DNA of 63,456 nt, the filler included, from Hausera hauseri (taxonomy: Eukaryota): assembly GCA_046269625.1 (NCBI GenBank). It is 10 parts of 10 records of this genome, joined end to end, with 100 filler letters (N's around TTAATTAATTAA, not from the genome) between each part and the next. Parts side by side here need not be neighbours in the genome. Positions count along the whole stretch, not along the records: positions 54,232 to 63,456 come from JBJURY010424364.1; 9 more parts are not named here. One strand, given 5' to 3'. The position numbers were made by a program, and so were the translations under genes. The notes below the pieces were generated by a model, which ran no database searches, was not told the origin of the DNA, and saw nothing but the letters and a program-made list of their open reading frames with translations. Below are positions 21,881 through 63,456 of this stretch, piece by piece. Numbering within the stretch: the stretch's first letter is position 1; each line of letters starts with the position of its first letter.

Positions 21881-22744
21881 CATATATGAGAACGTGGAAA
21901 ATTATTCGACGGACTTTATTAATAGCGAATTGTTTTTAAAAACATTCAAATTTGAATGGTCACTTAACTGACTTCCAATTTCGCAAATAATCAGTGACTT
22001 TTTTATAAAGTTGATAATCACCAAAAAGCATAGTTGCAAATAGTATGATACATGGTGTTAATAGAAATTTCATTCGTTCGATGATAAGTGCCAGTACCAA
22101 ACATGTAAATGACATGGCAAAATGATAAATAAGTTCCGGTCTGTTATTTAGTAGGTGGTCNNNNNNNNNNNNNNNNNNNNNNNNNNNNNNNNNNNNNNNN
22201 NNNNTTAATTAATTAANNNNNNNNNNNNNNNNNNNNNNNNNNNNNNNNNNNNNNNNNNNNCCAAACCTTTCCTTCCTTCCCGGGGGGGGGGGGGGCTTGA
22301 CGCCATGCACTCACATCTACCTACTGTCTGTATATAGACTTGGAATTCGGGATTAGTACGATTACGTACTGTTGTAGAAATTCGTCGATACTATGTCGGC
22401 TGGTCTTCATGTCGGTCTGAGTACTTACCAGTCTGAAAAAGAAAATGTAAAGGTTAATCTTAAAACAAAGTATGGCTTTAAACCAAAACCAATTCTTTGT
22501 CTGGTGATAGAATAACCTGATCTGTAGTTGTCAGGTTATTTTATCATATTGATCTACTGGGACGCCCGGCCGTGTGCAACCAAATGAACCACAGGGCGCC
22601 GGCCGCTGTGGGCACGACATCAGTCCCCCCCCCGTGGGAAAGAGAAAACTAAGGGGTAAAAGAGATGGAGAGAAAAAAATCGCAAAATGAAAAAGTGTCT
22701 GTATCAGCAGATCTTAGTGGGAACAAAACGTTGGATACCTTTTA

Positions 22745-25275: not shown

Positions 25276-25859
25276 CGGTATTTTATGTCTATTGATTCGT
25301 ATTTTTGGGGAGGATACTATATTCTCTGCCAGTTGGGGTATAATTCATTGTTTTCGATGTTTAATTCTTCCGCTTCATGAGTACTAATTAATGTCTCTCG
25401 GTTGTTAGTGTGCGGTTCTATGTTTCGGAAAAGTTCTTAACTTCGAGTTTCCCCAGACAGGTGGTTTAGTCTCTATATTACGAGGTTCCCTCGGGAAATA
25501 CAACATTCTGGGATCATCTCCGGACTGTCGGTAGCACATTTTCCGTAAAAGGCCGTAACGTTTCGTTCTTTCGTAAGGGTCTTCTATATTAACCATCCTT
25601 TTATAGATTTCAGTCTGGTATAAACTCGTGGACCGGTTATCACAGTCTTCGTAGACTGGAGCGGTAGGGGATAGCATAGGCAATGATGCTTTAATGACCG
25701 AATACGTCTTATATCTGTTTGTTCCTGAAGGTACTTCTCCTCCCTTAGGCTCGTCGTCGTCTGAATTATTTCTTCGCTTATTAGGTTTTGTAAATTTCCA
25801 CTTGTACAAGAAGATAGGCCTTTCTTTTCGTTTACGATTATAATAACCGACATGACGTT

Positions 25860-34534: not shown

Positions 34535-35469
34535 AAAAAAAGATGATGGAACACAACAAACTCCTTACTTAGTACTTTGATAAATTATTGATTTCTAGTG
34601 TAATAACAGCATGTCACTAGACTTTCTCTGTGAAAGGAAAAAGAATACTTACCCTTCTTTCTTGTTCTGACAGAATCTGAAAATAAATAAATAAAATGTT
34701 AATGCTAGTGCACAAGATCTTAAAAAGTTTGCTCACTTCGAGCATGCAACTTCTTGACACAAAATGTATTAAAATGCATGTTACAACAACAAATACAACA
34801 ACAATAACTTATCGTCATAATATCGATTATTATTATTACAGTTATCATAATTATAATAATGATATTATAAAAAACCTGCAGAATATTCACTGTTAAAGAG
34901 TGGAAACAAGGAAAATTTACATCATGTCAGTGATTAAAAAATTAAAGAGCAAAAATATAGCATTTTGGCACTGTTTATGGGGGTGGGACAAATTCACTAA
35001 TACAATTAATATCCCTTAGTTGCATGTTTATTTAGATAAGCACGGCTGAGTCGTGCTGTAATAGTAGTTGATGTAGTAGATATCAGTTGAATTTGGGGGA
35101 CCATTAAGAAAACCACCACTCTTTCCATCTTTGCATATTTGCATTTGAAAATGTTACTGATGTTTATTAGAGAGCATATCCATTTGAAATTAAAACAAAA
35201 CAAAATTCAAATGTCTAAACCTTATCCCCTCAACTAGGTTAATCATAAAACACTGACACAAGCCATTAAACTACTCTAAACAGTTTGGGGACCTGAGTTG
35301 AATCAAGACAGCTACCAGTAATTAAAGGTGCAACCCTCTTATAGACAGGTGTCAAACTAAACTGCACAGGGAAACAAAATTAAAACATTGGATCAGGGCA
35401 AAGGCTGTCTTAATGAACTTTTTACATGACATTTTAGATAAATATTGCTAGCTAAATTATCAATTAAGC

Positions 35470-37027: not shown

Positions 37028-37449
37028 TTAATCGCTTTCATGGCTTTCATCTCTTTCAGCGGTCTCACCTTCAAGTGTTTTCAGGTTTGGGAGTATTTCA
37101 AGGGCAAAATTTAACCAGTTACTCCTGTTTGCCTTCTCCAGAGGGTTTCCCTTAAAAGCCAGGTCCACCAAATCCGGCAGTTTTTGAAGCTTCCTAAACT
37201 CTATAATATCGTCGATTTTATTGTACTGTATATCCAGGATTTTCAGTTTCTTACAGGCACAAATTCCTTCCAATTGTTTAATAAAATTATGAGAAATGCA
37301 CAGCCACTCTAATGTGTCTGCCACTTGTTCCAGCCCAACAAGTGAACTTATTCTATTGTCGTTTAAAATCAATTTCTTCAATGTCCGAAGAGGCCCAAGG
37401 TTTTGTATTTGAGAAATGCGGTTTGCGGGAATATGTTCCGAGAGCCTTT
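37028..37449 (-). CDS. Leucine-rich-repeat protein, divergent axonemal dynein light chain 1 (DNAL1)-like, 5'-truncated
   Basis: L.GLEQVADTLE.L.IS.NFI..L.GI...KKLKIL...N......EF.KL..LP.L.DL.F.GNPLE..NW....LP.LK.L.G follows the DNAL1/LC1 pattern. Confidence 0.7.
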
Positions 37450-37638
37450 NNNNNNNNNNNNNNNNNNNNNNNNNNNNNNNNNNNNNNNNNNNNTTAATTA
37501 ATTAANNNNNNNNNNNNNNNNNNNNNNNNNNNNNNNNNNNNNNNNNNNNCTGAACATGATTCACGATGTGAACTGAGGGTTAAAGATTGTTCGACTCGAA
37601 GGATTACAATACTTGACAGGGAAACCAATCGAGGAAAT

Positions 37639-40100
37639 TTAGAGCTCATTTATAACTTTTGAATCAGGGTCCATTGAATCCGATAATTTCTTTACGAACT
37701 TCTGTTCCTGAAAACTGAAATTTGGATCGTTTCCCATTTCTATCAATTTGGTATGGAAATTCTGGTCTGACCCGGCCATCCATTCTTTAGATTTGTGTAA
37801 AAACCTTATTTCATCCGTTAACGTGTCTCGGTATCCTGGACAAATGTCCAAGATTTCAATGTCTTGAACAGAAATTTCCTCGATTAATTTCCCTGTCAAG
37901 TATTGTAATCCTTCGAGTCGAACAATCTTTAACCCTGAGTTCACATCGTGAATCATGTTCAGTTTTTCCATAAAGTTCGTCTCTTCGATCAGTTTGTAGA
38001 TTTCCTCCATTATCAATGCTTCTCATTCCTTTTCCACAAATTTTAGTCGTCGTAGCGCTTCAAATTGAGTACGGATGTCTATTTCTATGTGCATTGTGGC
38101 TAAATCATGTGTACTTTCCTCTAGTTGTGTCTTTACCATTGGCTCGCTTTGCGGAAATTCTGTTTTGCGATCTTCTACCAATTTACTTAGTCGTGTTACT
38201 AATTCGGACCATTTCGACAGTTGATTTGCGATTACAGGTTTTGCCACTATGGCTTTATCTAGCATCTTATAGGCATCTTCTACTTATCGTCTGGTCCTTT
38301 TAGGAAACTCATAATTCGACCGACATAACTAAACTCGTCCCTATGCTCGTCCAATTCTACGATACAAGCCTCAATTGTATATTGAGTATCCTCGTTGTTT
38401 GGGAACATAGTTCGATTTCTCAAACTATAAATCTGTGCTCGTGTTTCATTTTCTATTTTATACGACTCTCTAAGTTCGTATATCGTCTAGGTACGGCGAA
38501 CGTGAGTTTAATCATCTCCATTAAGGGAGGAATATCTACTGGGTCTATACCCAATATTTCTAAATCGGTATTACTTCGATGGTTAACAGCTTTTCCTTAA
38601 GTCGTTTAAGCATTGCGTATAGAATTTCGTCCATCATACGTTTTAAATTACGGACTACTCTCTTCAGTTTTTGGTTTTCTTCCAAAGTCGATAATAGCGT
38701 TTGAGCCTTAGTAACTTTTACATCGACACTTTCTTCATTCTTATTTCATCCTTCCGAAAATTCTACTCAGCTTTTAATCCATGATTCCAATTATTGCTTC
38801 CATTTTAACAACGTTTTGGTTGAGACTTCTTCGGGTTGTTCTAAGTCGATTGCTTCCGAAAACTTCACTTCGCTACGCAGTTTCAAAATTTTATATAACT
38901 TCTTAGCGAATTGTTTTTATTTTCCGGATATGTCTACTTGTTCGCTAATCTGCTTGAGATTTTCCCAATTTTGTTGTAATATTTTGGGCTCTAGACATCT
39001 AATTCGCATTTTCTTTAGCTCATCGGCGTTTATCCATGAACGTCGGACTTTCCATTTCTTTGGATAGAAATCGTTACTGTTTGTTGTTTCTTCCTCACTA
39101 GAAGGAAGTGGGCAAATCTCGTTAATTTCATTAATTAACTCTATGGGTTCTGCTACTTCGGCGGGGGTGTGCGGACCAATTTCCGGTATACTCGAACTAT
39201 GCTCCGTGTCGCCTCCTACAACGACGTTTGGGTTTTCCGTTTCTTCATTCTTCTCTCTGGTTATTTTGGAGCGTAAACGGCTTCTACGTTTCTTTTTTAA
39301 TGAAGGACTATTGCCTCTATTTTTCGTAATTTTAAGTATCAGTGGCTCTATAAACTCTTTTTCCGCTGCGTCGTCTTCAGTAAGCTTAGCTTCTTTTTCA
39401 ACTGTAAACTCAGGCTCTGCGTCTAAGTCGACTGTATCGATGTGCCTTGTTTATCAGATGGCTTGTTGCTCGTCGGAACACTCTTCTTCCGTGTCATGTC
39501 CATTCGTTTTGGTGCTATCGTGTGCACGCATTCAGTTTCCGGTCCTACTAAGCCGTGATATACTTCTATTAATCTTAATTTATCGCCGTATTCTCTTCTA
39601 GCCATAAGAATTTGTACGTTAATGGTATCCGGCTGAGCATCTAAGAATTTTCTCAAATCGTGTATAACGATGATAGTGTCTGTATCTCTACGAACACCAT
39701 ACTTTGCTTATAGGTTCTAGTTGATTCTAATCATACTAGTCTTATTCGGTTCGGTAAATGAAACGCTATACGGATTTGTACATGACCTTAAAATATGTCC
39801 TTCTTTGCCACAAGTAAAACAAACCAAATTCCCGTTTCTGCCGACTCTCTGTCGACCGTCTTCGTTCACCCGTGACTTAGATCTATTTATACCCTTATTA
39901 TACTGGTTTGACAAACTGCACATTATCAGTGTTTCTTCTATCGTTATTTCGGTTATCGCCGTTTTGATTCGAGTAGTTAGAACCTTTATAATTTCCTCTA
40001 TTCCTATCCCAGTCTGATCTGTTCGTATTAGTATAATTACTACCTCTGCCATTTCTGTACCCGCCATTATTATATCTGTCCACTTTCCTCACCTCCACCT
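37639..40100 (-). pseudogene. Gag C-terminus with CCHC zinc knuckle followed by a long unknown region; 5' part of the glycoprotein-bearing Gypsy family
   Basis: N/R/G-rich segment then CFTCGKEGHILRSC (CX2CX4HX4C); the peptide at 37639-38016 aligns without gaps to the translation of 54235-54610. Confidence 0.7.
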
Positions 40101-41398
40101 TGACGATAAAATATCCTATTAAACTTGTTTTTAAACATGTCCAGCTATCTGGAATACTGCATTGTTATTAAGCTCCATTATTAATTACATGTCTGTATAT
40201 CAATTTTGTTTATAACAAGTAAGCATGTCAAAAACATTTATTAACGCATAACAAGTGATAAAAGTATTACAAGTGCACCTGTAAGAATACTACATCTAAG
40301 TAATACATTTCTCTGTCTTCTCTTAAATTTTTTCTTAATGTTTCTTATACATATTGTTCCAACTACAAATTCTATATAGTCTTCTTTTGTTATGGGATGA
40401 TACCGTTCTAATTCTTTCAGGAATTGAATTCAATCAATTTTTCCACCACAAATCTCATTTGTAAGTTTCTTAATTTCAGCTCATAAATCCATTTTTCTAT
40501 TTAAACTATGTATTTAACGTTTGTTTATCAAAAAGTCAAAAATAATAATAAGAAAATTTATGAACACAACACTTAACAAAACTTAATTTCAACCATTTTC
40601 CGGATGGATTGACTTTTCCTATCTTTTTCTTTTAATCCTTTGATATACACTTTAACATATGTCATTATGTATTGGTATAGATCCATTGCTTATATATCGG
40701 AGCCCATGAAATCTTTGAATTTTACTGAGTTTGACCCAAAATAATGCTGTCTCTTATCATTTAACTTATCAGGGCTTATTCTAAGTGCTTGTAATTCAGA
40801 AGCCAGTTTTATGTAGTTCTTATCCCTAATGTCCTTGACATGGTATCCAAACTGAGTCTGTCGAATACATACTGGATCCTGTAATTCTACTGTTTTTGCA
40901 CCCTTTAGGAAACTTATTTCGTATCCCATATAGTTTCTTGGAGCCTTCATTTGTGCTATCTTCACTTGAGCAATCTTCTACTCTTGGCTTTTGAACAATT
41001 GATTAGCTGTCATGGGCATCACACGTACCATTTTACCCTATCATCTCCATAAGGATATGTAATATCCAATTGCTCTTTCAGCTTTCTCATGGAATGGATC
41101 AAATATTTAATCTTTCTCTTACAGTTTGGAAAACCTAGAACCTCCTCTACCGCTCGGCCAAGTGATACATCAGTATTTTCAATGTTGCGATTCTAAAAAA
41201 ATGTAGATAAAGACAAGAGAGGAGCACAAAAACTCACCATTCGTGGACGTGAATTTTGAAATAATGAAAATTATAACCATGTCAACGCGTACTATCTTCT
41301 ACGCACAAATCAGATGTGAACAATTTGAATGAACCAATCAGATTTTTCCTATTTTAATGCGCTAAGTCAGTTGGAAAATACCTTTCATTTTTACAAAT

Positions 41399-41889
41399 AT
41401 GCTGAGCAACATCAACTACAGAGGTTTCACTACAGTTTTATTGGATGAATTAAAATTCGGATGTAGACCTAAACAATGTGTTTTACGATACCCCGAATAT
41501 ACGATTATATTCTCTTCCAATGGAAAATGTCAAATAATGGAGCGTAAAAAGCCCATTGATACATGCAGTTTGTCCTACAATGTTTCAATTGTGTGTATAT
41601 AATCAATTACAGTAATATTTAATTTTGTGAACCCATATATCTAAACACATTGGGAAAGAATAATCCAATTCTTTACGAACCAGGATTATTTCCTGCAATT
41701 AGATTAACTTGCTACAATCCTCTATGTGTAAATGTATTTCATACCTGGAAAATTGTTAATACCGGTTTGAAGGATTTAAATTATAGTGATATTGTTAGTT
41801 GTGTTTTAGACAATTTATTATTATCGGCTTATGTCTCTTTTCAAAAAGCAACATGTGTGTATACAACAACTTTATTAACACAACAATAA
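41399..41889 (+). pseudogene. Intronless TATA-binding-protein-like gene (stop plus frameshift near 41600-41650)
   Basis: Two TBP-like repeats: SNINY..TIIFSSNGKCQIM and I*SITV..PIYL..LYEPGLFPAIRL..P...NVFHTWKIVNTGLK (compare TBP YEPELFPGLIY..LIFVSGKVVLTGAK). Confidence 0.7.
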
Positions 41890-41918
41890 CAATCTGTTAT
41901 TGTACCACCTCTACATGA

Positions 41919-42179
41919 TCAATCATGAATATCACCCTCCTCTTTTTCTTCTTCTTCCTCAATAATAGCGATTTCAGTTTCATCATCGCCATACTCACTG
42001 TGTTTGCAATCTTCACAACATTCTTCAAACAATTCAGTATCTTCAGTTTGATTAGCTGCATCCACGTATTCATTTTCTCCATCAAGATCGCATTGAACAC
42101 ATCTACATTTTGAAACATCTTCAGAGGAAGCATTGCCCTCTTTGCTCATATCAGCTGCTAGATTATTAATAAAGTTCAT
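41919..42179 (-). CDS. Small acidic Cys-containing hypothetical protein
   Basis: 86-aa ORF with CRCVQC, CCEDC and an E/D-rich tail, lying between the TBP-like gene and the pPolB remnant. Confidence 0.3.
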   Translation of the reverse strand: MNFINNLAADMSKEGNASSEDVSKCRCVQCDLDGENEYVDAANQTEDTELFEECCEDCKHSEYGDDETEIAIIEEEEEKEEGDIHD

Positions 42180-42279
42180 TATCTAGGTCATATTCTATAT
42201 ATCAAATTTTGTTTATATCCCCGTCGTAAGTGATTCTGTACGTTTGTTTTAATGCATCAATTGCATACATTTTACAGCG

Positions 42280-44132
42280 CCATATTTAAAATTTGAATGA
42301 GGTTTTCATACATGGCAATCAAATGGAGTAATCAGATTATTCCAATAATTTATTCTTGACCTAATATTATAGAAATTTTCAATGTTTTATTCCTTTCGAG
42401 ACACTTGTAAATACTTTACGCCCCATATTTTTGGTATATAAAGGTTTCCAGACATGGTACTATCCGAATAGTACTATTCGAATATTTGAATTTGATCGAG
42501 AAATCGGATTTTTTATTTAAGCCTCTTTTCGAATATCTGGCGTCATATTCGGATTATCCATATACGGTTTTCTATCCATCTACGCTTTTACATTTTTCGA
42601 TTTTTGCTTCGGTTCGAATAGAAAATCAATTACTTGAAAAGTTCAACCTGGATTCGACTTTTAGAACAAGTGACACCTGATTTTGATTCCTCACATGTAG
42701 GTTCCTATCTACATACGCTTGCACATTTTCGATTTGCACTTGCTTGTGTGCTAAAATCAACTTTATATGTTTTATCGGAAAGAAGTTATTATTGATTAAA
42801 GCACACTTGCACATGTATTACACATCTGTAAAGTGTTATATAGATGCATTAAGACATGCGGAATCGACTGGCGCTCTCAGATTTCTCAACAATTTATGCT
42901 TGTCAAGATATTTGATACTATTCGGAAATCTGAGATGAAAGACCAGGGTTACAATATGGAAGTTCTTATCTGTTCCTGCTTAAATAATTGTCGAATTTTA
43001 CTTCCTTAGGGCCTAAAAAACCTATGCCCGTTCTCCTTCAGTTGAAATTGGCACGCACACTATTCGTAAACTATTTGATCGATTTAAATTCTAAGTGCAC
43101 AATGTTGTAGTCAATCAAAAACTCGTTTGAACTGACTCTCCAAATGTGCTAATCGTCAATATTAAAGTTATCGGAAAACCATTTTTATTGACTTTGCACA
43201 ATTGCCCTGTGTACTAATCGATGTGTCTAGACATGCTATATCGATTAGCACTTCGCCGCGATCGATTCGATCAATTGTGCTATGTGCCGAGATCGATTTG
43301 TGAAATGAGCAAAAGTTCTCATAGTAACGGTGCCAAACGGAACCATTGCCTATCACTTTACCGATCGATAATGTTCCATATGCACTATCGATTAGAACAG
43401 TGCATTATCGATTTTGCACTGTGCAGAACCCCAAGGGGGTTGAAGGAGAATCCGCATTTTCCACTACTCATATTTTCAGCCACATTTGCGATATGTTCCA
43501 ATCTCTTCATAAATAAATAATCCGCTCCGGAATCTCTGTACAAAAAAGGAGTCTCATCAAATCCTTTTGCATACATACAAAATAAAGACAGTTAATGCAA
43601 TTGATAAGCTGTTGTATGGGACTGTTGGGAATTTTCATAACATCCATATATTGGTTGTAATACTGAATCAAAGTGAGAATAAATGACTTGGTACTCCGAG
43701 CATTTTTTCATATTCCTTAAGCACTATGTAATTATCTTTGGAAAATCAACCCGTAAACACTCGTTTTCATTTCAATACTATTTGTGTTCTTTTATATACA
43801 TTTGATCAATATCATCATTGAAATGAGTCATGCATCTTTTCCATACTTCAATATTTCCACGGTTATTGGATACTTGTTTTAAGACCAGTCGTAAAAGGTT
43901 TCTGATTTATACGTAATGATTATTGTCCCTTTCGTTTAATAAAAGTAAATCCCTATGATCAGTTTTTTCACATATACATACTTTAAGGGGATAAATTTTC
44001 TTGGAATCAACGGTCACAAAAATATTGATTGACACTAATTTAATTTTTCAGATTTCTCAAAGTCATGAAATAATGGTGGTATGTTGATACACGAGAAATC
44101 ATAGTCATGCTGAAGGCATGTGTATAATTCCT
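42280..44132 (-). pseudogene. Highly degenerate Polinton/Maverick (adintovirus-like) protein-primed DNA polymerase B, N-terminal/exonuclease part
   Basis: Fragments in the expected order across frames: HYV*IRNLLRL, KRCMTHF, YEKMLGVP..FSHFDSVLQPI..C..NS..S.TTAYQLH..FCMY, RFPNSIKYL, AMYENL.HSNFKY. Confidence 0.55.
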
Positions 44133-44935: not shown

Positions 44936-45419
44936 GATAGTAGTAATACATGTATAAAACATGTATCATTTGCCTGCCGCCGTTGCCGCCGTTAATATAG
45001 CGTAAAGAAGAAAAACCCCTGCCGCCGTTAATATAGCGCAAAGAAGAAAAAACCTTTTAGACACCGGCAATGTTTATGACGTCATTCTGTAGCGGTGGAT
45101 CGTTGACCTCGCGAAGCTGTAGGAGTCCATCATCACTAGTGGCCTTCTGATGAAGCGTCAAACCTATAGTGGTGGATCATCATCTTTGTCTATTAATGCC
45201 CAAGACCGGTTGTAGGAGCTCTGCCAGGTCTATATTCCCAGTCAATCAAGCCTTGTAATTATTGTAGCATCCCTCTGTGGAGCATGGGAGCTGTAGTGAT
45301 CGAGCCCTTCTTAGACTGTATTTCATAGTCGAAAGAGAGAAAAAGAGAGACAAACCATCATCACTTCCTAGAAGATTATACAGTGATCAAGACCTTCAGT
45401 GGTAGAGCGTAAGGGTGAA

Positions 45420-45525
45420 AGAGAGACAAACAGACAGACAGACAAACAGACAGAAAGAAAGAGAGACAAACAGAAAGAAAGAGACAACCAGAAAGAAACA
45501 GAGAGAGAGAGAGAAAGAGAAAGAG
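45420..45525. repeat. GA/CAGA microsatellite
   Basis: Seen directly. Confidence 0.85.
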
Positions 45526-45583
45526 CAACTTGCGGTTTAAGTACAAATTTATAAGGGTTTATACGATCACAACATTGACAATT

Positions 45584-46194
45584 ATGGATCCTAGGTGGAA
45601 ACATCCGTTTACTGCCCTTATCGCGGGACCGACCGGCTGCGGTAAGACCGTTTTCGTCCGCGAATTTTTGGCGTATCTTCCAGACATGGTCGTCCCCGTT
45701 CCAGAGGAGGTTATATGGTGCTACGGGGAGTGGCAAGTGACTTATGAAGACATGCAAAATATTCAATTTCACGAAGATCTCCAAGACGTAGAACAATGGC
45801 GAGGGGACAAGAGAAGATTGGTGATTATAGATGACCTAATGTCCAAAACCGACGACCGAGTAACCAAACTTTTTACAAAGGGAAGCTACCATCGGAACCT
45901 TAGTGTCATGTACATTGTTCAAAACCTATTTGAAAAAAATAAGGAACAACGGACCATATCTCTAAACTGGCATTACATCCTTTCTTTTCAAAAATCCCTG
46001 GGATGTTTCGCAAATTACCAATTTGGCCAAACAAATGTACCCGCAGTTCATACCTACAAGAAAGTTTTAAGGAAGCGACCACCAAGCCTCACGGTTATTT
46101 GCTACTCGATCTTCGCCAGGAAACACCTGAACACTTGCGAATACGAAGTTCCATATTTCCCCACGAGAGACCAGTCGTATACGTACCAAAGTAA
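45584..46194 (+). pseudogene. Polinton/Maverick A32-like packaging ATPase, frameshifted
   Basis: HPFT.LIAGPTGCGKT (Walker A), WCYGEWQ, LVIIDDLM (Walker B), LFTKGS.HRNLSV.YIVQNLF, RTISLN; C-terminus (EATTKPHGYLLLDL..TPEHLRIRSSIFP) is in another frame. Confidence 0.9.
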
Positions 46195-46195
46195 C

Positions 46196-46347
46196 ATGGC
46201 AGATAAAATGAAGCGACATGCAGAAATGTTGCGCTTCTTGATCGAGGCGAACCCGGCAGCCTTCAAGGCCGTCTTTAAATCGGCGTCCCCGAACCTTGTT
46301 CCGCGCTTTGTGAGTGTTGCTACAGCGTGTTAAAAGGTAACGTTCCG
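46196..46347 (+). pseudogene. Truncated Polinton small conserved ORF that follows the ATPase
   Basis: MKRHAEML..L..A.P....A..K.A...L...LCECCYSVLKGNVP motif (one frameshift); cut off by a tandem repeat. Confidence 0.6.
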
Positions 46348-48281: not shown

Positions 48282-48560
48282 GTGTCACATCTGCCATCTG
48301 ACGGTATAAGAGTTCCAAGGTATCTGAAGGTAATTTCAAAGGTAATTATTGTGTTTTTATCGCTTTTATTATTACATTGCACAACGGTGGCTCTTTCATC
48401 TTAGAGACTATCATCGTTACTGTTTTGTGTGTGTGTTTTTTTTTGGGTGCTGCATCCATTCTTTTCACGTTCAGTTATTGTAAATCCCCTTTGTTCGTTG
48501 CTATTAGTACGGTGTCGTCTGCATAGCGTAAATTATTTAAATTATATCCACAACTAGGAA
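48282..48560 (-). mobile_element. RTE-clade LINE reverse transcriptase fragment
   Basis: GYNLNNLRYADDTVLIA..LQ then F.YLG.L...DGRC; further RTE-like debris (WNVEIQAAFREK) near 49250-49290. Confidence 0.75.
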
Positions 48561-48929
48561 AGCAAAGATTTGGATCTTGCGGTATTTTGCTTAATAACAT
48601 TAATCTGGCAGCAAAAGCGTCAGAATTGGTGTGGGGGGGGGGGGGGGGGAAGGGGGGGGAGGGGGGGTGGGGACGCCCCCCCCCCCCCCCCCCCCAGAAA
48701 AAAAAACCGACCGTAATATGTATGTATAAGTGATTCCCTTGTCTTAATCTTAGCTCGTGGCAGGCACGCGCTGACACGAGTTTGCAGAAAAGTAAGAACT
48801 CACTATGCGGCAACGTCGTTTCATTGTACTAATCAGGACTGTGCTTGTTTTAATTTCGTGCACGAAGTTGGGATTTTTGGCCTATTTTTCCCAACCTCTG
48901 CATCTTGCAGTAGCACTTCTTGTCACATG

Positions 48930-49056
48930 GTAAGGGTGTCGATTTTTAGCTGTCGTCGACCCATAAATTTTCTTAATGGAACTATCGACCCCTAGAAAGT
49001 TAAAATCGACCCCTGGGGGTCGATATCGACCACTTTGGGAATGACTGAGCTAGAAC
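48930..49056 (-). mobile_element. hAT-Charlie-like terminal fragment
   Basis: Reverse complement begins CAGTCATTCCCAAAGTGGTCGATATCGACCCC, with repeated TCGACCC subterminal motifs. Confidence 0.5.
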
Positions 49057-52000
49057 ATTAAGGGGTTTGGGGTTGATATACTACTTCTCTTCTGATATTA
49101 TGGATTAACTTCCAAGCTTTATTATTTTCATTTTTGCCGTAGGTAATGTTTGCGACAGATTTCACATCACTTCTCCTTTTCGGCTGTTCTCATTATAAGT
49201 TTAACCTTTGCAAATCTCCTGTCAAATATGATTTTATCATTTTGCTCTACCCCTTTTCTCTGAATGCAGCTTGTATTTCAACATTCCATAAGTGACGATA
49301 ATTCCTTATAGAACCTCTTCGAATAGCTTTAGTTGTGGCACTGAGAATGGTGTGAGTTTTCAGTCTGTTACATGTCTCTGCTTCATTGGTGTCCATTGTT
49401 GTACTAATGGTCCACGGTCTCCTCGTACAGTTTCCAATCCGCTTTGTTGAAATTACACCTTGTTTGTGGATTAAGCTGTGTCTTCTTGGGTGTAGGAGAG
49501 TTTATGTTTACTGTCAATGTTATCAAATAACTATATGCAGCGAGAGTGTATGTCATCATATGAATATTTTATATATCAGATGAATAGTTTGTCAAATCGG
49601 ACCGACTTAATGAGAGGTGGGCTCTGCGTAGTAGAGTTGGTAGTGATGGTAAAACAGTCAGATTTGTTGTCTAGCATAGCTCTTCAATGGTCTTTCCTGT
49701 GGCATTAATCTTCGTAATCCCACTGAAGTGAATGCCCACTGAAATCACCAGCTATAATTGTGTTACGATGGTCTGTTTCATTCAGTTCAGGTATTAATGC
49801 ATGATGTTCCGAAGGTGGTGGTAAGGTGGGGTTGGGGGATATACGTTAATGATGGTATATTTGCGTCCCTCAAGGCAGACTGGAGCTTTCTTAGTTACGG
49901 TAGGTTCTGCTGTGTTTGCTTGCTTAACATCACCTTGACTATCACTTCAAATATATGTAATTATTCTTCTACAGTTGCTACACTTGCTTGCGTAGCCTGT
50001 TTATCCTGATTTACGTATATTTGAATTCTTATGCAGTGTTTCCTGTATTAAAGCTATGTGCACATGATGTACATGTCGTCCTTTGGTTAGTTGTGTTTTC
50101 GTGTTCTTGATATCACAAAGCTTTATCAGTAGCATGTTTGTGTTTCTTTCCTGACCTTTCTCACACATTTATTCTTGCGAGACCATTTTCAGTTTATGAA
50201 CTGACTGAGGTTGGTTTCTTGAAGTTTTTCCAGGCGCTCACTTTTCGCACATATTAGCATCGTTGCATGGTTGCTCACTAACTAGCGCGGATCTTGTTGA
50301 ACGAGTGACGTCCTAGCTCGCAAATTTTCTCCGCCATTATAGTCATTATAGTCACCAGTTTTGCAACTCCCTTCTTTCAGCCTTGGAGTCACGGAATGAT
50401 TCACATCTACCCATTCCCCGCTCTTTATTGTCTTCCGGGACGCTATTTCAATAGTTAGGCGTTAAGCACTTCAGCAATGCGACCATAAAGTTAGACAATG
50501 CGAACGGGTCGTCGCGTTCTGTGTCAATTCTATCTGTGCTAGTAGTCCACAGTACTGATGTTTGTAAGTTGCAGCTTCCAGCTCGATTCTTTGATATTCC
50601 TGGCCTTCCGATGTACATCCCAGGTGTTCAAATTAAAAGGGATTCTGGGAAATTATCCCATCCACATGGGGTTAATACATGAAGGAGTGAATGGAGCAAA
50701 TACCTGTTGATAAAAAGTAAAACCCAAGGGGAATGAGGCTGGAAATGGTGATGAATGTATCGTATACCATAAGCCCGTGGAATCTGCATACTGCATTTTA
50801 AGGGGGATAACCTCCTCCGTTTTCTAGTTATACCGCTGGACACGCGGTCGTCCCCAAAACCAACTTTGCAAAAATATGGGCACCTGGAGTAGATCTGGAT
50901 TTGGACACAGTAATGAAGGAGAGGCCGTAATATATTAGCTCGCAGTGTATTTAGTGTACGTACTGGCGCCAGAACAGTCACTACAAGTAGCGATGAAAGG
51001 CTATAGTAATCGCGTTACCACCTATTGGCAAGTTCACATTTTTAGTGTCTGCTCCACTACTATTTTGTTAAGATCATTACTATCCCTTTTGCAGCTCATA
51101 CTGAGGGTAAAGCATTTTTTATATTGTGTTGACATCCTCAATTTTAATGCATCTTGGTATAATTTAGAAAGGAAACTATTATAGAATATTAATCTCTTTT
51201 GCACTTGTTAAGATCAGTGTAACCCGTTCAAGGTTCATGATTTAAATTAAAGATGTCTTCAATTTTAACGGGACGTGGCGTTACGTTTAAAGCGAGTTAC
51301 ATGATGGAGTAATTTACGTTTTTGTTTCCAACAGTGGCGTGTCTTGAAAAAACATTGTAATGGGTGAACCAACAAAATGGTTCTTGGACATGAAGATTTG
51401 TCCTAACTGTGGAGATATCTGGATTAATCGATGATTCTGTACTTGCACTGAACATAAAAAACACACCACACTGCCCTCCGCTCCACTAATTAGTAACCAT
51501 GCATGCAGTCCTATGATGTACAGCTGTCGTAATTATCCGATGTCTAATCGGCTTGCCTCCTCCGCATCCTCCTACTACTGCTACTACTACTACTACTATT
51601 ACTATTACTATTAATACTACTAATATTTTTACTACTAAATCCTGTTGGTTCCAATAACGGAACACAGTGTTAATGTCACCATCACAGTAAATCTCATTTT
51701 CTAATGAATTTATCATTATCATCTTCAGTGATATCTTTGTTGTATTAATTTATTTATCTGGAGTCCGTTTCCATGTTGGTGTTGGTCTCCTGACGCTCGC
51801 CTTTCTCCAGGTTGGTGTTGGTCTCCCAACGCTCGCCTTTCTCAAGGTTGGTATTGGTCAGTAGTGTAAGGCGTGCATTTGGGTTATTATTTCTGGGTGA
51901 GCGATGGGTGAGAATATATACCGTATATAAGAAATACCAGCTCACCCATTATTTACCGTATATAAGAAACTCGCTCGCCCATCTGATGATAAGGGGGAAC

Positions 52001-54231: not shown

Positions 54232-56320
54232 ACGATACTAAATGATATATATAAAATGATTGAAGAAACAAAATTTATGCGAAAGCGGAATGCGACTTGC
54301 GATTTCCATCCGCGGTTGAGAGATGTCCGCCTGGAAGGAATACGATGGTTGATATCTAAACCTATTGAATAAATATCGATCAGAGATCTTAAAACCTTAG
54401 ATTTTTGTCCCGAAAATCGGTCAATCGTTGAAGAAACGGTGAAATTCTTACACCAGCCACAAGGATAGATGGACGGAACGAATCAAAGGCATCATGCCGA
54501 ACTAATTAAAATAAAGAACGACCGCCAGCTTAATTTTGAAGAGACCAAATTTGTAAAGAAATTCTTAGACGCAATCGATCCGGATTTAAAGAGTATTAAC
54601 GAGATGTACGAATTAGCATTATTAATGGCGAAATTGTCAGAAATTAATGACGAAAAATTAAGACAATTGTTGCAACAAATACAACATGTCGAAGAAACTT
54701 GCATTATGACAAAACAGAGAGCGATGAGATTAAACGAACTAGCTAAAGAACTCGAAGCCTATAAAAGCAAATACGCCCTTACAGAAGCCGAAAAAGCTGA
54801 CAAGTTACAATTCATTCAAAGATGGCAAAGAGATGTCACATCTGAGCTAACGAAATATCAAGAAAAAGGGCTAATTTCACGCAAAGAATTATGTTCGTTG
54901 TTAACATTGCTCCACCAAACGTCCGCTAATGGACGATGTTTTCGAACGACGAAAATGATCTAAATACAACAAAAACTACAAGAACTCAGAAAAATTACGT
55001 GGACCGCAGGTGCAGACCGGTCAACTGGTACACCATTGAGGAGCTATCTACTGCCGGATAATGAAAATAAACTAGATTGGGAAGCCTATTTAGACACAAT
55101 AATTGCCGAGAATCCGAAAACCCCAATACGATTAGAGCAAATGGAGATATATTCTCCGGACCAAAGGTTCAACGTCGAAATGCTTCTGGACCCGGTACAG
55201 ACCGAGAAAGATTTAAATCAATTAATTGAAGTGAACCTCACCGAAAATCAACTAAGACACCTAGTTCCCACTTTAACTAAACTAGCTAGCAAAGGTACGA
55301 CTTCTAGTACGGTACCTAAGCTTTTACTGAAGGAATATGCTAAAATCTTAAAGCAAAGGCAGAGGAAATGATCCCAGTAAAGATAGTATCGGACTGGATA
55401 GACGAAAAGGAACAAGAGTTCACTACGCACTCCCTTGTAAAGGATGTATTACTGTGGATAAAGAATAACGGATACGCCCATGAGCTGAGCTATAGACTTT
55501 ATTTCCGAGGGAGGGTACTACACGAGTAGGAATTATTAATAAAAGTCGGAATTATCCCAGGTGAAATAAACCGGTTAGTGGTAATCACCACTATCGACGA
55601 AACAAAAGAAGAGGCCTTAAGGAAGGCTAAGGCCGAACAGCAGGTAGGACGAATAATAGGAGTCCGAAATGCAGCAGTATATTTCGAGTACCTACAAACG
55701 AATGAAGATAATGAGCAATGTGATAAAAATTTAGTACCGATCGATGGCAGTATACCTGTTGTAACAAAACAGAAGCGCCCTGTCGGTAGGCCACGGAAGA
55801 TATGAGAAGAAATCGACTATATTAGAGACTTAATTAGGGAATTGAAGCAGATGTCCATACCGACCGTTAGCGCGGATAATAAGGAACTAAACGAAATTAT
55901 GAAAAATTTGATACGAATAGTAAACCACTCTAACCTCGGTGGTGATATATTAGACGAGAAGGGGAAGGCCATAGCAGATGCCGCAAAGGCCATGAAGATC
56001 CTTCGGTGTAAATCGACCAAAAAGTACTTTAAGCGATGAAATGATAATCGAGAAAATTATGGTAGAAAATACCTTAAAGGAACTGAGAAAAGTGTTGCTA
56101 TATCTGGCCATCAAAACCAATCCGAATAGAGAAAATGAATTTAACAAGGCTATTAGTTTAACAAGAAAGGCTGACAGGAAAATACCTCGAGAAGTGAATT
56201 GGTCTACGTTATTCGAAAAAGAGGAAGAACATCAGAGTGGATTCTTCTTCCATAACAATAGATTCGGAGATCTGCTACGAAATATAACTGGAAATCGCAG
56301 AGGAAATGAGTCAAAGTGGT
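54232..56320 (+). pseudogene. Unknown polyprotein region upstream of the glycoprotein (helical/coiled-coil domain, ubiquitin-like domain, basic linker)
   Basis: Long reading frame broken by isolated stops and 2 frameshifts; homologous to 37639-38016 (minus strand). Confidence 0.6.
55368..55586 (+). pseudogene. Ubiquitin-like domain (one in-frame stop)
   Basis: LVKDVLLWIKNNGYAHELSYRLYFRGRVLHE*ELLIKVGIIPGEINRLVV aligns without gaps to ubiquitin residues 22-71. Confidence 0.55.
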
Positions 56321-58110
56321 TAATTAACTTTTTGACTCTGATGATGTTAATAAGACAAATGGGCCAAAAATATTCGTTAACGGACTTGGACATGTGCAAA
56401 GATGTGAGGCCCCACAGATTAGAAACAAAAGAGAAAAGTTATATATTATATCAACAACGCGAAATAGTTACCTTGGGTGGAGTACAATGTATGTTGTGGC
56501 GATCTAGCAGCATTTTTCATTGTGGACTGGTACATGGACACTCGTCAATAATTAAGCCAACAACCCCATTAATTACGATGAATTTAGAACGTCAGCATTG
56601 CAAGCAAGTTACAGAAACGGGGCGAATAAAATGGGACGGTATGGAACTGGAAATGCAGCAAGGGAAAATAATAAGAGTGTATAAAGTAGCTGCAGGAAAG
56701 CTGGACATGCAAACCGAACATTGTTATGGTGCGGAATACGATACCGGAAAGGGATTAGAGTCAAACGTCGTGGTAGTGGATTTTTACGAAACCGAAATGC
56801 GTATTCAGAAAGTGATGTTTCATAGCGTTACTAAACTTTACACCGAGAACCACAAGTGCCACATTCGGGATGGCACATGCATGTTTCGAAGTTCTGTAGT
56901 AATTTGTGAACCTCCAGCAAAGACCGATTGCAACTTTATCAGAATTAAAGATCTTAAGTTCAACGAGACGACAGGAAAACGATACATAAATAGCACGAAA
57001 ACTAACTCTAAAACACGAAAAGATGTAGCCGAACAGTCCACACCTACTATACTAATTTCTGATACTTATGGATTAAAATTTGTAAAGAAAGCTATGCTCA
57101 CAAGATGGGACGTCGTAATTTATGCTACCAACTACGAAGCATTTTTCGTAGCCGTGACAGAAATAAACGCCAGAACGTTCAAACTCGAGACTCAGGATAT
57201 CCGGATTGAAGACTATTTGAAGAACAGAGACGACTATTTCTACTATAAACGACAAGCCGGAATAGCCGTGTTATACCACAAAATGATAACAAAAGACTGC
57301 AAATTGGATTTGGAAATCATGAGAACTAAACTAGCTCTAATATACGCAAATTCGGAGTTGGAATCACCAATAATTCCGATGAAGGAAGGTGTTTATGGAC
57401 GAGTAACAGGAGAGGTCCTATTGACGTATGAGTGTAAGAAGAAAGACGTACCGATTAATGTGGAAGAGAAGAGGTGCATACAAGAACTTCCAGTAATATA
57501 TCAGGACGTACCGAGATTAGTAACACCAATTACAAGAGTAATATTGGCTAATGCTACTCAACCGAGGATTTTAAGAGACTGTAAAACCAGGTTAGGAGAG
57601 CCGATGTTCAGACGTAGCGAGACCGACTGGGTAAGTTTACCGAACGGTTGTATTATCGCAGCACCTACCAAACTGACAGGAACAAACCTCATAAAAGGAA
57701 TAACCGATGGTAAATTTCAAGATACAGCCGCAAAAGGTATTTACCGACCAAAAGAAGTAGAGGCGTTTAGACAATTTCTCGCTTTTCCCCTCCAACGTAC
57801 ATATGAATTAAACAGAGCGATGCATACAATATTAGAGGACTCGCGCTATTAGGCAAAATGGGAATCATTACTTGGCGTTGGTTATTACAAGAAGGTAACT
57901 ACAGAAATATTATACAAAATGTGTGGAAGATTCCTGATATTCGGACAAGCCGCGTCACGATTTCTAGCGATATATTTCTTAATTCAACTGGTAAAAGCTA
58001 TAATTCAAGCAATTATAAATGAATACGGGATATTCACCTTGGCTGGATTTTCGTGCAAAATTTTAGCTACTATTATTACTCCTTTTGGAAAATTCTTAAA
58101 AGCTTATGAA
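56320..58110 (+). pseudogene. Chuvirus-like class III fusion glycoprotein, copy B (within ORF 56041-57852 plus in-frame 57853-58270)
   Basis: Internal hydrophobic signal WLINFLTLMMLI, Cys-rich ectodomain (IFHCGLVHGHSS, GEVLLTYEC, CIQELPVIY..LVTPITRVI, KGIY), N-x-T sequons, C-terminal TM; single stop at 57850 where copy A has Gln. Confidence 0.78.
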
Positions 58111-58631
58111 GAGAGTAAATGGAAAACGGATGTGGAGCGACATGTTGGCTACCATAATCGAAAACGTAAAAGACACATATTCGATTATAGACAGAAATTC
58201 ATAGTCAGTAAGACACGAAGAAATAATTCCGATGACGACGAGCCTAAGGGAGGAGATGTCATCCCAGGCCAAGCAGGCACAAAAACTACTATGTTATGAA
58301 ACTACCATTATCAATATTCCCGCCAACGGCACTTATATATAAAGACTGCGACAAACAGTCTATGAGCTCGTACCAGGCAGACATTTATCGGAAGCCGTTT
58401 AGTTTAGAGGATCCTTACAAAGGAACAAAACGCTACGGGATATTACGCAAAATCCACGAAACATAGAGGACCTCGGCTCCACGCCATAAATCAGCGGTCG
58501 ACGACCACGATATAATTTACTCACCTAGAATATCTAAGCCAAACGAAACGCAATTTACGCGAAGCTGTGAGGCACGAATTCTTCGAAACCCAGATGTTCA
58601 GCCGCCAGTTAGAAACCAAAGAGTAAAAAAG

Positions 58632-61600
58632 GTGAATAAAACGAATAACGAACTATACCCAATTGGAGAGTTAAGACAATTAGTCGATCATCCAGTTAGA
58701 ACCACTGAAGTTACCATCAACGGCTACAAAGTGTCTACGATACGACAACCCAAGATAGCACCAAGCTATTACGGTACAGTAATCGAAGGCAGATCCTTTC
58801 CAAAGATTCAGTTGGACGATTGGGAGGCTTATGCACTAATAGATATAAGTTCTGAAATATCACTGATAAAATTTGATTTGATACCACAATTCTTACGGAA
58901 ACAATTATATCCACCTACTACGACAGACCTAGGAAGCATTGGAGCTTTCGGACAATCCTCGAAGAGTAAATTCCGATAGAAACCAGAAATTCACATAATG
59001 GGACAATCTTTTCGTCATGAATTCTCAGTAATGGAGCAATTAGCAGATGATGTAGTGTTAGGATGTGACTTACTAAGACAATTACCCAATATAGCAATGG
59101 ATTTCAATGCAGGCAAGTTGATAGAAATTGGCCCAATAAAAGGAGTCAAAACTACCAAAGATAGAAAATTTGGAGAGATGTGGATTCCCGTAGACGAAAC
59201 CATATCACCCAGGACAGAAATTCTAATATATGCTCAGATACGTCAGGATGACGATCAGCCAATATATTTCGAACCAAAGGAATCGCTTGATCCAAACCTC
59301 GTGTTCAGCAATGTTTTGACAAAAGTACCAACAGGCCGTGTGCCAATCAGAATAGCAAATAACGCACCAACTCCGATTAAACTGTACGCCATTACCACTT
59401 TGGGACACACGTGTATAGTATCATCAATCACTATTGAGGAAAAACCGTATAAGGATGCCAAATTTCCGCCCCACGTGGAGACTAAGTTTTCAGCAGAATC
59501 ATATTGTCTATTTTACGAATTACTCTGTCGTTATAGTTCGATTATCGCGAGAGATGAAGAAGACATTGGCCGAGCCAAAACCTTTAGGCTTACAATTTCG
59601 CTTAAGAAAAAGCCCGGATCTAACGACGAAATAGACTTAGAGGATCAAAAGATGCCGAAATGGTACCCTCCTCTACATTCATTAAGGCCAGAAATGACCA
59701 AAGAGGTTGAACGGATGTTAAAAGCCGACATAATTAGACCAAGCTATAAATCTTGTTATTCACCGATACTGATGGTTAAGAAGAAAGGTACAGTAAACAC
59801 CGATTTTGTATCGACTATTGAGCGTTAAATACACTTATGATGAAGGACTCTTTTCCGTTACCATCGATAAAAGAAGCTTTAAACAGGCTTTCAAGAGCCA
59901 AATGGTTTACCACTCTAGATTTAATATCTGGATATTGGCAAGTAGAGATAGAGGAGGAAGATCGTTACAAAACGGCATTTAAGACACACGACGGTGTATA
60001 CGAATTTAATGTTATGCTATTTGGAATAACTACCGGACCAGCCATTTTTACGCCCATGATGAATAAGATGCTATCGGGACTGGAACACGCGTTCGCCTAT
60101 TTAGATGACGTTATGATTCCCTCGAAAACGGAAGACAAACATTTAAAGGATATTGAAGGTACACTCATGAGGCTGGAACAATCTGGATTAAAATTAAATC
60201 CAAAGAAATGCATAGAGACTCAGAATGTTGTATCTTACCTTGGACATATAGTCGGAGAAGGAGGATCGAAGCCGGATAAGTCATTATTAAGTAAGATATC
60301 GGATTGTATGGAACCTCAGAATTAGAAGAAATTAAGACACTGGTTAGGGTTGTGTGCGTATTATGCTACTTACGTGCCAGACAATGCGAAGATAAACGCA
60401 CCTCTGTATCATTTACTTAAAAAAGGGATCAAATGGAAATGGACCGATATAGAACAAAAAGCTTTTGACGAAATGAAAAAAATTCTGACTAGTGAACATG
60501 TTTTAAGATATTCTGACTTCGACCTACCATTCATAATCAAAACAGACGCCAGTAAGGAAGGTATCGGATATAAATTAGCTCAGAAACGATAGTATGAGGA
60601 CGTTCTCTAAAGAAAGCTGAGAAGAATTATTCCGTAACAGAGTTGGAAACATTGGCAGTAAAAGAAGAACTGCGACATTTTAACGTATACGTCTATGGAC
60701 AATATTATAATCCTTACTGATCATAAAGCAGTTACGACTTTGAAAGGTAGAGCAAAAATCCAACGTGTAGACTAAACAGATGGATAGATGAAATTTCACG
60801 TTATAATATTGAATTCCAATGCAAGCCCGGAAATAAACACATCGACGCCGTTGCCTTATCGAAATTTGAAACTAAAACAAGCGCAGTTACTGTAATGAGG
60901 AAAACACACCTCGAAGAATTAGTAGATAGACAGCGGACTCTCGTGTTGGATAAAGCATTAAAGATTGCTGTCAAACAGAGTAAAGACAAAGTTATGCAGC
61001 AAATTATCAAGTACGTTGATACCAACGTAACACCAAAGGGTCATCAGTTACGGAAACACCTACGACGATATGGTCACAGGTACTGCGTCACTGGAGATTT
61101 GAACCACGAAAATGTGTTATACTACGAACGAAAAAGACGAAAATTTTTAGTCATACCAAAAGGATTGCGTTCAGAAGTATTAATGGCTGAACACGATTCG
61201 TATTTAGCCGGACACATGTCGTGGAAAAAGACCTAGAAAGAATCTTGAATAAATATTATTGGCCAAGCATTTACATTGATGTGAGAAATTGGGTAAATGT
61301 TTGCGATGTATGCGCAACCAAACAAAGGAAAGTGAAAAACTACGTCGCCTAACTTAAACCTATCGACGTTCCCGATAGACCAATGCAAGCAATGTCTATG
61401 GATATTGTAGAGCCATTACATACAACTCATATGATCAACAAATACATTTTGACCTGTGTAGATCGATTGACTCATTTCGTCGAGCGTATAGCGTTATTAG
61501 ACCAAAAGGCCAAGACCTTGGCAGAAGCCGTAGTCCGGAAAATCATTTGCACATACGGCCACCCGAAAAAATCTTGACAGATCGCGGAAGAAACTTTACA

Positions 61601-62163
61601 AGCGAATTGTTCGATAACATTACCAAAATTTTTGAGATTGAACGATTAACTATCACAGATTATCATCCAAAATGTAATGGAATGGTCGAACGAATGAACG
61701 CGACAGTTATACAAATCTTATCGACAGTAGTCGCAAAAGACCAGAAAGATTGGGATGAGTTCTTAGAAGATGCACAGTTTGCTATTAGTACTACTCCACA
61801 TCGTGCGACAGGATTCACTCCATTTTTATGATGTACGGAAGAGAAGCTGCGCTTCCTACAGATCTAGGACTCATTCCATATACAACACAAACGGAGGATT
61901 TAGAGCAAAATTTTGTCGAAGTATTACAATCAAGATTGCACAAGTGTTGGGAGATAGCCAAGGAATTATCTAAAGAATACCAGGAACAATTCAAGAAGCA
62001 ATACGATAAGACAGCTAAACCTCACGATTTAGAACCCAGAAACTGGGTTTATGTACACTATCCAGTAGCAAAGAAAGGCACATCTCTGATGCTTACTAGG
62101 ACAGACAGAGGATCTTATAAGGTTACTAAGGTTACACCAACCAGTTTACATAAAGAAAAGTAA
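58632..62163 (+). pseudogene. Gypsy pol (PR, spacer, RT, RNase H, integrase), copy B
   Basis: ALIDISSEIS (decayed DTG), LDLISGYWQ, YLDD, IKTDAS, HDS..AGH..CDVC, MDIVEP, TDRGRNF, YHPKCNGMVERMN; RT-RH-IN order is Gypsy-type. Confidence 0.93.
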
Positions 62164-62230
62164 CATGGAATAGTTCATATCAATTCAGTGAGTAGTTAAG
62201 ACGGAAATAAGACCAGATAAACGCTATAAT

Positions 62231-63456
62231 TTGCGTTCGAATAAGGTTAATAAGGAAAGGAAAACATCGTCAATCGTAACCAGACAGATATTATATGTAC
62301 AAATAATTCTCGCCCTATCGCTAATCGCTTCTTATATACCCAAGGTGAAATCAATAACTAGAACTGAAAAACTACGATACTCAATGAAAAACAGGGATAT
62401 CCAGAACATGCAACCACTTAGAGTACACGATATGGATTGGAGCAAACCATGTGCATGGTTTGAAGCAAGCAAAGCCGTACAGAGCTATGTAAAATTTCAA
62501 ATAATATTTGTAACTAGATATACGATGGGAACATGTGATTTTCCGTACGGACATCACAAAAGATGTGGTGATTCGGATTTTGGACAAGCCTACGGATACA
62601 GATTTCAAATGTTTTATTCTAATCAGTTTGGAGCTCAAGCTTATATAATTGCAGAACTCGTAATTAGAATGCCCCAACGAAAGGACGTAAGCCAAGCCAA
62701 GACGGACGAAATAATCCGAAGCTCTGACCCGTTTAAAAGACTCTTAGATTATAACATTATGGGGATTTACAGGGAATTAAAGAATCAATGTATACGGATT
62801 GAAATCAAAATAGAGCTGCATGGAGACAGACAAACATCTGTCCGATTTATAGCATTAAATGCTTCGATCCCTACTCTGGTGTATTGTTATCTGGCCAAAC
62901 GCCGATCTACTACCTGTTGTGTAATAAAACTAGGACAAGAGTATCAGTTGCAACTTGATTTGTTTAATACGTACCCCGGAGAGCAAAGCACTTATTTAAG
63001 AGGATATCGTCCGAAAAACGTAATATGAAAACTTCCATCCCCAACCACTACGAGAAAACTGTCCACTGCTCCGAGTACAACTCGCACTACTACGATCGTC
63101 ACTTCAGACGAAATGTCAGGTAGCATACCTATTAAAATTTTGGCAAAAAGCTATAAAATTCTATTTTTCGCTGAAGAGACGTTAAATCAAGACGTCAAAA
63201 TTGAATGTCGCACCCTGCACACTAACCAAGTTATGATCCTGAGGAAGAGTATCCAGGAAACTGAATGTAGATCATTACGATTGCAACACGATTATATAGT
63301 CAGAATCACAGCAAAGGGTAAGAACCCAAAACTTATACAGTGCGGAATCTAGACGACAAGATCGAAGTAATGCAGTATGGAGATCTTAGTACGCAAAATG
63401 CTTTTACCACAAAAGGTTCTATTGAACCAAGCAGTTTACCGACGATAGCCATATTG
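62231..63456 (+). CDS. Putative second surface/env-position protein downstream of integrase (signal peptide, Cys-containing, Thr-rich stalk, FN3-like); internal stops, truncated at window end
   Basis: Hydrophobic ILYVQIILALSLIASYI segment; ORFs 62231-63028 and 63113-63352 share a frame and are joined by PSPTTTRKLSTAPSTTRTTT. Confidence 0.5.

Follow-up and report, generated by a model that had tools for sequence, protein, structure and literature searches.

How does an envelope-type glycoprotein come to lie before the protease in a Ty3/Gypsy retroelement, and do the two belong to one protein? This question is raised by contig JBJURY010424364.1 of Hausera hauseri (assembly GCA_046269625.1), which occupies positions 54232-63456 (plus strand) of the window, that is, of the whole stretch of 63,456 nucleotides analysed here. 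The window is made up of 10 contigs of 4-10 kb, rich in eukaryotic repeats and joined by N44-TTAATTAATTAA-N44 spacers; since they are concatenated, adjoining contigs are not true neighbours. The contig in question carries one copy of the element (copy B), a second copy (copy A) lies on contig 22261-27641 (minus strand), and a third copy of the same family (copy C, 37640-39923, minus strand) lies on contig 37550-44132. With a probability of roughly 0.88, the copies are dead remnants of a large, high-copy GAG-ENV-POL family of Ty3/Gypsy elements resembling the planarian element Burro, the ancestor of which was likely translated as one polyprotein.

Organization of the copies

The core features of copies B and A are given below; relatives numbered P0001 onwards are protein matches of the envelope glycoprotein (Env).

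56317-56352, plus strand: predicted internal signal peptide of Env, hydrophobic core (mean hydropathy 2.14 over 12 amino acids (aa))
56356-57960, plus strand: class III (gB/chuvirus-type) Env ectodomain, with a stop at 57850 (PF24664, AlphaFold2 (AF2) model)
57961-58074, plus strand: predicted Env transmembrane (TM) anchor at 57961-58017, then a weaker amphipathic segment (hydropathy 2.18-2.27 and 1.75)
58075-58790, plus strand: cytoplasmic tail and linker to the protease (PR), with a frame change near 58260 and a stop at 58464 (codon-position bias, ratio of nonsynonymous to synonymous differences (pN/pS))
58791-59790, plus strand: aspartic PR, active-site motif degenerate in copy B, and post-PR domain (RVP; aligns to P0002 and P0003)
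59791-60804, plus strand: reverse transcriptase (RT) and RNase H (RH), broken (RVT_1, E 1.6e-28; RT_RNaseH)
61153-62236, plus strand: integrase (IN) with H2C2 zinc domain, core and C-terminal RYNLR motif, broken (Pfam, alignment)
22774-27636, minus strand: copy A, with Env ectodomain, TM, linker, PR, post-PR domain, RT, RH and the start of IN; several breaks

By Pfam, the order of domains in copy B is PF24664, RVP (weak, E 0.014), RVT_1, RT_RNaseH, Integrase_H2C2 and rve, and that in copy A is PF24664, RVP (E 1.4e-4), RVT_1 and RT_RNaseH. The two copies are colinear, with 71% identity over 4,794 alignment columns, and the alignment stops at the start of IN. Domain calls and alignment agree with the order proposed in the original prediction, glycoprotein-TM-linker-PR-RT-RH in both copies and IN in copy B. 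The best solved match of the RT was the Ty3 RT (4OL8, E 1.8e-44) among 12 matches that include no BEL or Copia reference and do not amount to a tree; lower matches were 8r0s 'Enzymatic polyprotein' (3e-35), Pr125Pol (1e-22) and p80 RT (2e-16). Together with the Pfam order of Pol, this bears out the earlier Gypsy assignment, and the sequence matches indicate that Pol of the window copies is Ty3/Gypsy, ordered PR-RT-RH-IN. A word-based protein search with the PR region against longer proteins found 0 matches.

Both copies are interrupted, at all the places listed before. Copy B has stops at 57850 and 58464 and a frame change, which we place near 58260 rather than at ~58270; copy A has frame changes near 26713 and 26120, a stop at 25869 and an out-of-frame patch at about 25405-25330, and its Env ectodomain is cut 5' by the contig end. 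Where the copies align, none of the breaks is common to both. The ATG at 56041 was ruled out as the start of the element by coding homology further upstream, and homology likewise extends downstream of 62163; no gag lies within 56041-62163. In run X1, 23,268 contigs, mostly less than 95% alike, cover 30 of 30 bins of the copy B contig, a depth that does not equal copy number, and this coverage is in keeping with a large repeat family whose members have diverged. Searches of metagenome, viral and genome contigs turned up no related DNA loci.

A class III glycoprotein of retroelement descent

The Env of copy B matches PF24664 (Monjiviricetes fusion glycoprotein) over 55996-58299 (E 5.9e-49). Its signal core has an equivalent in 8 of 8 compared relatives, all of which are about 15 residues longer than copy B at the junction of signal and ectodomain (~56360), where copy B has lost the first conserved cysteine. 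The AF2 monomer model, built on a 98-row alignment, reached a predicted local distance difference test score (pLDDT) of 88.9. Among viral models, its best match was a chu-like virus G (E 2.4e-29, 17% identity), with identities of 13-18% to the top 8 and about 10% to gB. Among 48,161 solved chains, the best match was herpes simplex virus (HSV) gB (Z 9.4, root-mean-square deviation 12.2, 423 residues aligned), and the top 13 were all class III fusogens (gB, rhabdovirus G and thogotovirus GP). An Env profile also finds herpes gB (E 0.004), and 8 cysteines are nearly invariant across a 118-row Env alignment. A single-sequence search of the PDB gave 0 matches, as did word-based searches against longer and against similar-length proteins. 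The model and profile evidence indicates that Env has a class III fusogen fold of the gB/G-type, multi-domain and with conserved cysteines, as the original prediction had supposed.

Whether such a protein is a recent viral acquisition is a separate matter. A nested insertion or endogenous viral element, in which a chuvirus G or another env was placed in an ordinary Gypsy element and became fused by chance, would accord with the best structural matches, which are chu-like virus glycoproteins. However, the nearest Envs belong to retroelement polyproteins. In a FastTree phylogeny that took in 104 of the 118 rows, many of them nameless (P0010 and P0015 were among those dropped and P0070 was absent), the copy B Env falls, on a long end branch, in a 16-row clade (SH-like support 98) with all the env-before-PR polyproteins kept in the tree, and this clade stands apart from stand-alone glycoproteins of ~650 aa. 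The Env does not nest among free chuvirus G, as an endogenous chuvirus element would, and its flanks are retroelement domains. The earlier label "chuvirus-like" therefore holds for the class III fold and the matches to chu-like G, but not for close kinship to free chuvirus G. Env is an old retroelement-borne protein and no fresh chuvirus insert.

A probable single reading frame from Env to Pol

The junction between Env and PR was examined through the differences between copies A and B. In Env, TM, linker, PR and RT alike, mismatches concentrate at third codon positions (p 1.2e-3 for the linker at 58260-58459), and the bias is not significant in two short blocks. In-frame pN/pS was 0.19 for Env, 0.22 for TM and tail, 0.36 for the linker, 0.23 for PR and 0.14 for RT-RH, compared with 0.92-1.61 overall in shifted frames (0.92 and 1.37 for the linker out of frame). 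In copy A, moreover, TM, linker, PR and the start of RT all stand in one frame class. These substitution patterns show that the linker evolved as protein, connecting Env to PR in frame.

Intact proteins point in the same direction. A phmmer search with Env against 1.84 billion proteins returned 355 matches, and the domain scan covered 20 of 150 listed matches, chosen by rank or length. In 10 of the 17 best matches of the 355 (P0001, P0002, P0003, P0005, P0008, P0010, P0011, P0012, P0014 and P0017), PF24664 is followed by PR within a single open reading frame (ORF), which runs through IN in four cases and through RH in one; P0151, a cluster member, likewise has Env then PR in a single ORF of 4,844 aa. 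In P0006, P0008, P0014, P0015 and P0017, the ORF that encodes Env begins with a gag-like N-terminus, as judged by Retrotrans_gag, CCHC or similarity to these. Codon-position bias, low in-frame pN/pS and single-ORF relatives together support the continuous glycoprotein-Pol frame that had been proposed.

The same data bear on two other explanations. One is that recoding within the linker (programmed frameshift or stop read-through) joins the adjacent Env and Pol, with most translation terminating once Env is complete. The linker of copy B does hold a frame change and a stop, that of copy A an out-of-frame patch, the linker aligns poorly and some relatives end after Env. Nevertheless, the breaks of A and B are at different places, no X XXY YYZ heptamer occurs in copy B at 58101-58800 and the 4 in copy A are unmatched in B, and the 10 relatives named above read straight from Env into PR, which makes recoding improbable. 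The other is the insertion introduced above, which has a very slight probability: Env and Pol have diverged in step between the two copies, both under purifying selection, the linker is coding, and exact repeats of at least 10 nt number only 3 and 1 in the two linkers. No long repeat or common slippery site was found there. A nested insertion or chuvirus-derived endogenous element is largely refuted by the single-ORF relatives.

Further features were seen in the relatives. Aspartic-protease-like domains are repeated (from 2 to at least 4) between Env and RT in P0001, P0002, P0008, P0014 and P0151, and occur after IN as well in P0002 and P0151, the latter of which has a C2H2 finger and ankyrin repeats as well. 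P0003 (HBK71150.1), whose Env-Pol polyprotein is intact, has been entered under a Flavobacteriaceae metagenome-assembled genome as a hypothetical protein; this bacterial label likely reflects eukaryotic contamination.

A gag-type knuckle and accessory domains upstream of Env

The 5' part of the element was pieced together from copies C and B, the features of which are as follows.

37640-39923, minus strand: copy C 5' part, CCHC knuckle (about 39825-39774), then a long accessory region (zf-CCHC, gag profile)
54232-55053, plus strand: accessory region of copy B, lying between gag and env and of helical or coiled-coil appearance (homologous to copy C)
55054-55610, plus strand: helical block and ubiquitin-like domain, broken near 55352 (common to P0008, P0015 and P0016)
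55773-55802, plus strand: AT-hook-like GRPRK motif (Pfam AT_hook, E 0.054)

Copy C at 38013-37642 aligns with the first part of the copy B contig (54235-54606; 46% aa identity, E 4e-40), and its CCHC knuckle lies ~1.8 kb further upstream than this overlap. The knuckle is of gag type (Pfam zf-CCHC, E 1.2e-4), and a gag profile from 4 relatives matches copy C at 39923-39774 (independent E-value (iE) 4e-4). For the accessory region of copy B (54232-55053), the sole Pfam result was a match to DUF6306 below threshold. On the helical and ubiquitin-like block of copy B, a profile built from 3 relatives scored 12.4 bits, a score equalled by 0 of 281 reported shuffles (300 made), and Pfam called ubiquitin weakly and in P0015 only (E 0.03). 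On inspection by eye, P0002, P0008, P0015 and P0151 have a GRPRK-like motif upstream of env as well.

Weak Pfam matches to Bcl-2 were obtained in relatives (P0004, E 1e-3; P0015, 0.055; P0001, 0.2). In P0001, P0004, P0015 and P0016, a putative Bcl-2-like domain lies immediately in front of the signal peptide of Env, and this peptide could also serve as the membrane anchor of that domain.

Observations weighing against a single polyprotein

Several observations count against descent from a single-polyprotein ancestor or blur its outline. There are 0 intact copies within the window, no long terminal repeat (LTR) was identified in the window copies, and the contigs end within the element. The segment 58460-58750 aligns poorly between A and B, and the 58464 stop within it has no strictly homologous codon in A, so that the earlier statement that the lesions of the two copies differ stands where they align but not for this stop. 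For the proposed gag-env-pol order, a gag-type knuckle is present upstream in copy C, but neither Pfam nor the profile detected a capsid domain in the window, and the upstream part of copy C is decayed. Copy B gave no support for the Bcl-2-like domain of Burro: 85 of 297 shuffles score as high.

The relatives also give a mixed picture. Six of the 17 best matches end in or just past Env, and some relatives, seen as protein sequences only, may stop there; P0006, seventh of the 17, ends in a PR-like motif without a Pfam call; and P0005 and P0152, cluster mates of P0151 with a longest contig of the same size, are separate ORFs. Relatives are only 23-32% identical to the copy B Env, and none of the near-full-length matches among the 1.84 billion library proteins exceeds ~32% identity to it. 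Finally, the second hydrophobic segment past the TM leaves the topology ambiguous; it was taken for a membrane-lying helix, since PR would end up in the lumen if this segment crossed too.

Relation to known elements

The original prediction had called the architecture non-canonical, env-like genes normally lying 3' of pol, and had named an earlier cataloguing of it as a refutation. The premise of novelty fails on this very ground, since the layout has been published for Burro (PMC6431247) and catalogued as GAG-ENV-POL (PMC13524379). According to the section of PMC6431247 (Arkhipova and Yushenova 2019) that deals with it, the planarian giant Gypsy element Burro/GYPSM1 has a single ORF of 4,873-5,140 aa in which env is placed in frame after gag and before pol, its Env matches mononegavirus fusion glycoproteins, and the elements occur in thousands of copies. 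The family described here shares with the described Burro the in-frame Env between gag and PR (inferred for the window copies and seen in intact relatives), a CCHC gag, a ubiquitin/SUMO-like domain before Env (weak in copy B) and an extra domain between PR and RT. The conserved post-PR domain sits where Burro has a dUTPase-like domain; Pfam, by which the window copies were scanned, gave no dUTPase match, and the Burro domain came from HHpred. P0151 resembles Burro in size (4,844 aa) and content (ankyrin repeats). In contrast to Burro, no BCL2-like domain was detected in copy B, and MATH, BIR and ankyrin domains are unmatched in the window copies. The likeness rests on described features and not on direct sequence comparison, and Burro proper also exceeds 25 kb. 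On the features described, the window family would have worked like Burro, and its headline architecture is already known.

In the passages of PMC13524379 (Chary and Hayashi 2026) that concern them, GAG-ENV-POL errantiviruses of HSV/gB type are described from Nematoda, Bryozoa and Platyhelminthes, with a citation of Sacco et al. 2022, and 10 bryozoan and 9 flatworm elements are listed, with up to 215 copies. These elements resemble the present family in the Gypsy Pol, the gB-type Env upstream of it and the ectodomain between a signal/TM and a TM segment. The available main text of that paper has 0 mentions of 'fused', 'in-frame' or 'polyprotein' and leaves the env-pol frame unstated. PMC8532177 contains no whole-word mention of Burro or env.

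Other comparisons are more distant. The canonical layout was found among the matches themselves, in P0062 (Env after DUF5641; outside the window Env clade) and P0070 (Env after IN). Chuviridae G and herpesvirus gB have the same fold, which here is embedded in a retroelement polyprotein. Anakin, reportedly described by Dezordi in 2020, is said to be a mosquito BEL/Pao element with a chuvirus G; like canonical gB-type errantiviruses, it has an Env of the family found here (PF24664) but another gene order.

The region after the integrase

Copy B continues beyond IN.

62273-63352, plus strand: post-IN region, with a signal-like segment (62273-62332), a Cys-containing domain and a Thr/Ser-rich stretch at ~63035

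In all four relatives that pass IN (P0002, P0003, P0011 and P0151), an in-frame signal-like segment is followed by an extracellular-looking domain and a later hydrophobic segment; in copy B the contig runs out with no anchor yet seen. The post-IN domains of 3 relatives contain an L-x-P-x-T-x-Y motif, which we take to be fibronectin type III-like and which copy B lacks; the Thr-rich stretch is clear only in copy B, P0002 and P0151. The continuation after IN is predicted to be a second membrane protein.

An alternative is that this region lies outside the polyprotein, as an accessory ORF3 of its own or as unrelated sequence. A stop and a frame change part it from the IN frame in copy B, and rotifer Gypsy elements are known to have small ORF3s with a TM segment, according to the part of PMC5408684 consulted. 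No sequence similarity to the relatives' tails was detectable (best E 2.4), no Pfam family matched, the single-sequence model was unusable (pLDDT 30.5), and the first Atlas match (0.83, tick lipocalins) was too weak to use. On the other hand, the VHxN and RYxLR motifs of the IN C-terminus flank the break near 62185 at ~16 residues, a spacing like that in P0002 and P0151 (13 residues in P0003), and the four relatives continue in frame. A separate ORF3 is accordingly regarded as rather unlikely.

Herpesviruses and paramyxoviruses split receptor binding from fusion. The window family may, as a tentative suggestion that we hold to be possible but short of even odds, have been a two-glycoprotein retroelement, whose polyprotein would cross the ER (endoplasmic reticulum) membrane twice, with a gB-type fusogen before PR and a fast-evolving surface protein after IN, which would act as the fusogen's partner in attachment. 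Neither section 7 of PMC6431247 nor the passages of PMC13524379 consulted report a post-IN membrane protein; figures may show it, and no search by name was made.

Proposed mechanism

Adding the spans of copies C and B, the active ancestor would have encoded a polyprotein of ~4,000 residues or more, in the order Gag, accessory domains, Env, PR, RT, RH, IN and a predicted second membrane protein. Through its internal signal, the ectodomain of Env would be translocated into the ER lumen, where signal peptidase would free the Env N-terminus while the Gag/accessory part stayed membrane-tethered. The Env TM would then stop transfer and the chain would return to the cytosolic side, on which the protease would release PR, RT-RH and IN; a second signal after IN would insert the additional surface protein. 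Equal amounts of Gag, Env and Pol would result, and a particle carrying the gB-type trimer might bud and spread between cells. This topology and processing are suggested by hydropathy and by the processing of RNA-virus polyproteins, used as an analogy.

Other sequences in the window

Decayed Gypsy pol regions (RT/RH/IN) are present at 6912-8364 and 17053-19372 (both minus strand), and tblastn found no env homology beside them. An A32/IVa2-type packaging ATPase remnant at 45419-46333 (plus strand; Pfam Adeno_IVa2 E 7.8e-5, Pox_A32 2e-4), adjoined by 27-nt and 35-nt tandem arrays, is likely Polinton/adintovirus-like. An ORF of 544 aa at 32930-34564 (minus strand), with a weak DUF4218 match (E 1.3e-3), is presumably a CACTA/EnSpm-type transposase. 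A leucine-rich-repeat protein fragment at 37028-37449 (minus strand; LRR_4, E 1e-10) is probably a host gene, and decayed LINE-like endonuclease/RT remnants were recognized by eye from translations at 48282-51500 (minus strand).

Implications

The present finding mainly adds a divergent family to a known architecture. Within metagenome data, polyproteins that join Env and Pol in frame constitute a broad clade and are liable to mislabelling, as in P0003. The recurrent post-IN membrane protein is the part worth following: if real and unreported, it would be a candidate for the protein that binds receptors alongside the gB-type fusogens of retroelements, and it would offer a testable model of the production of Gag, Env and Pol from a single ORF.

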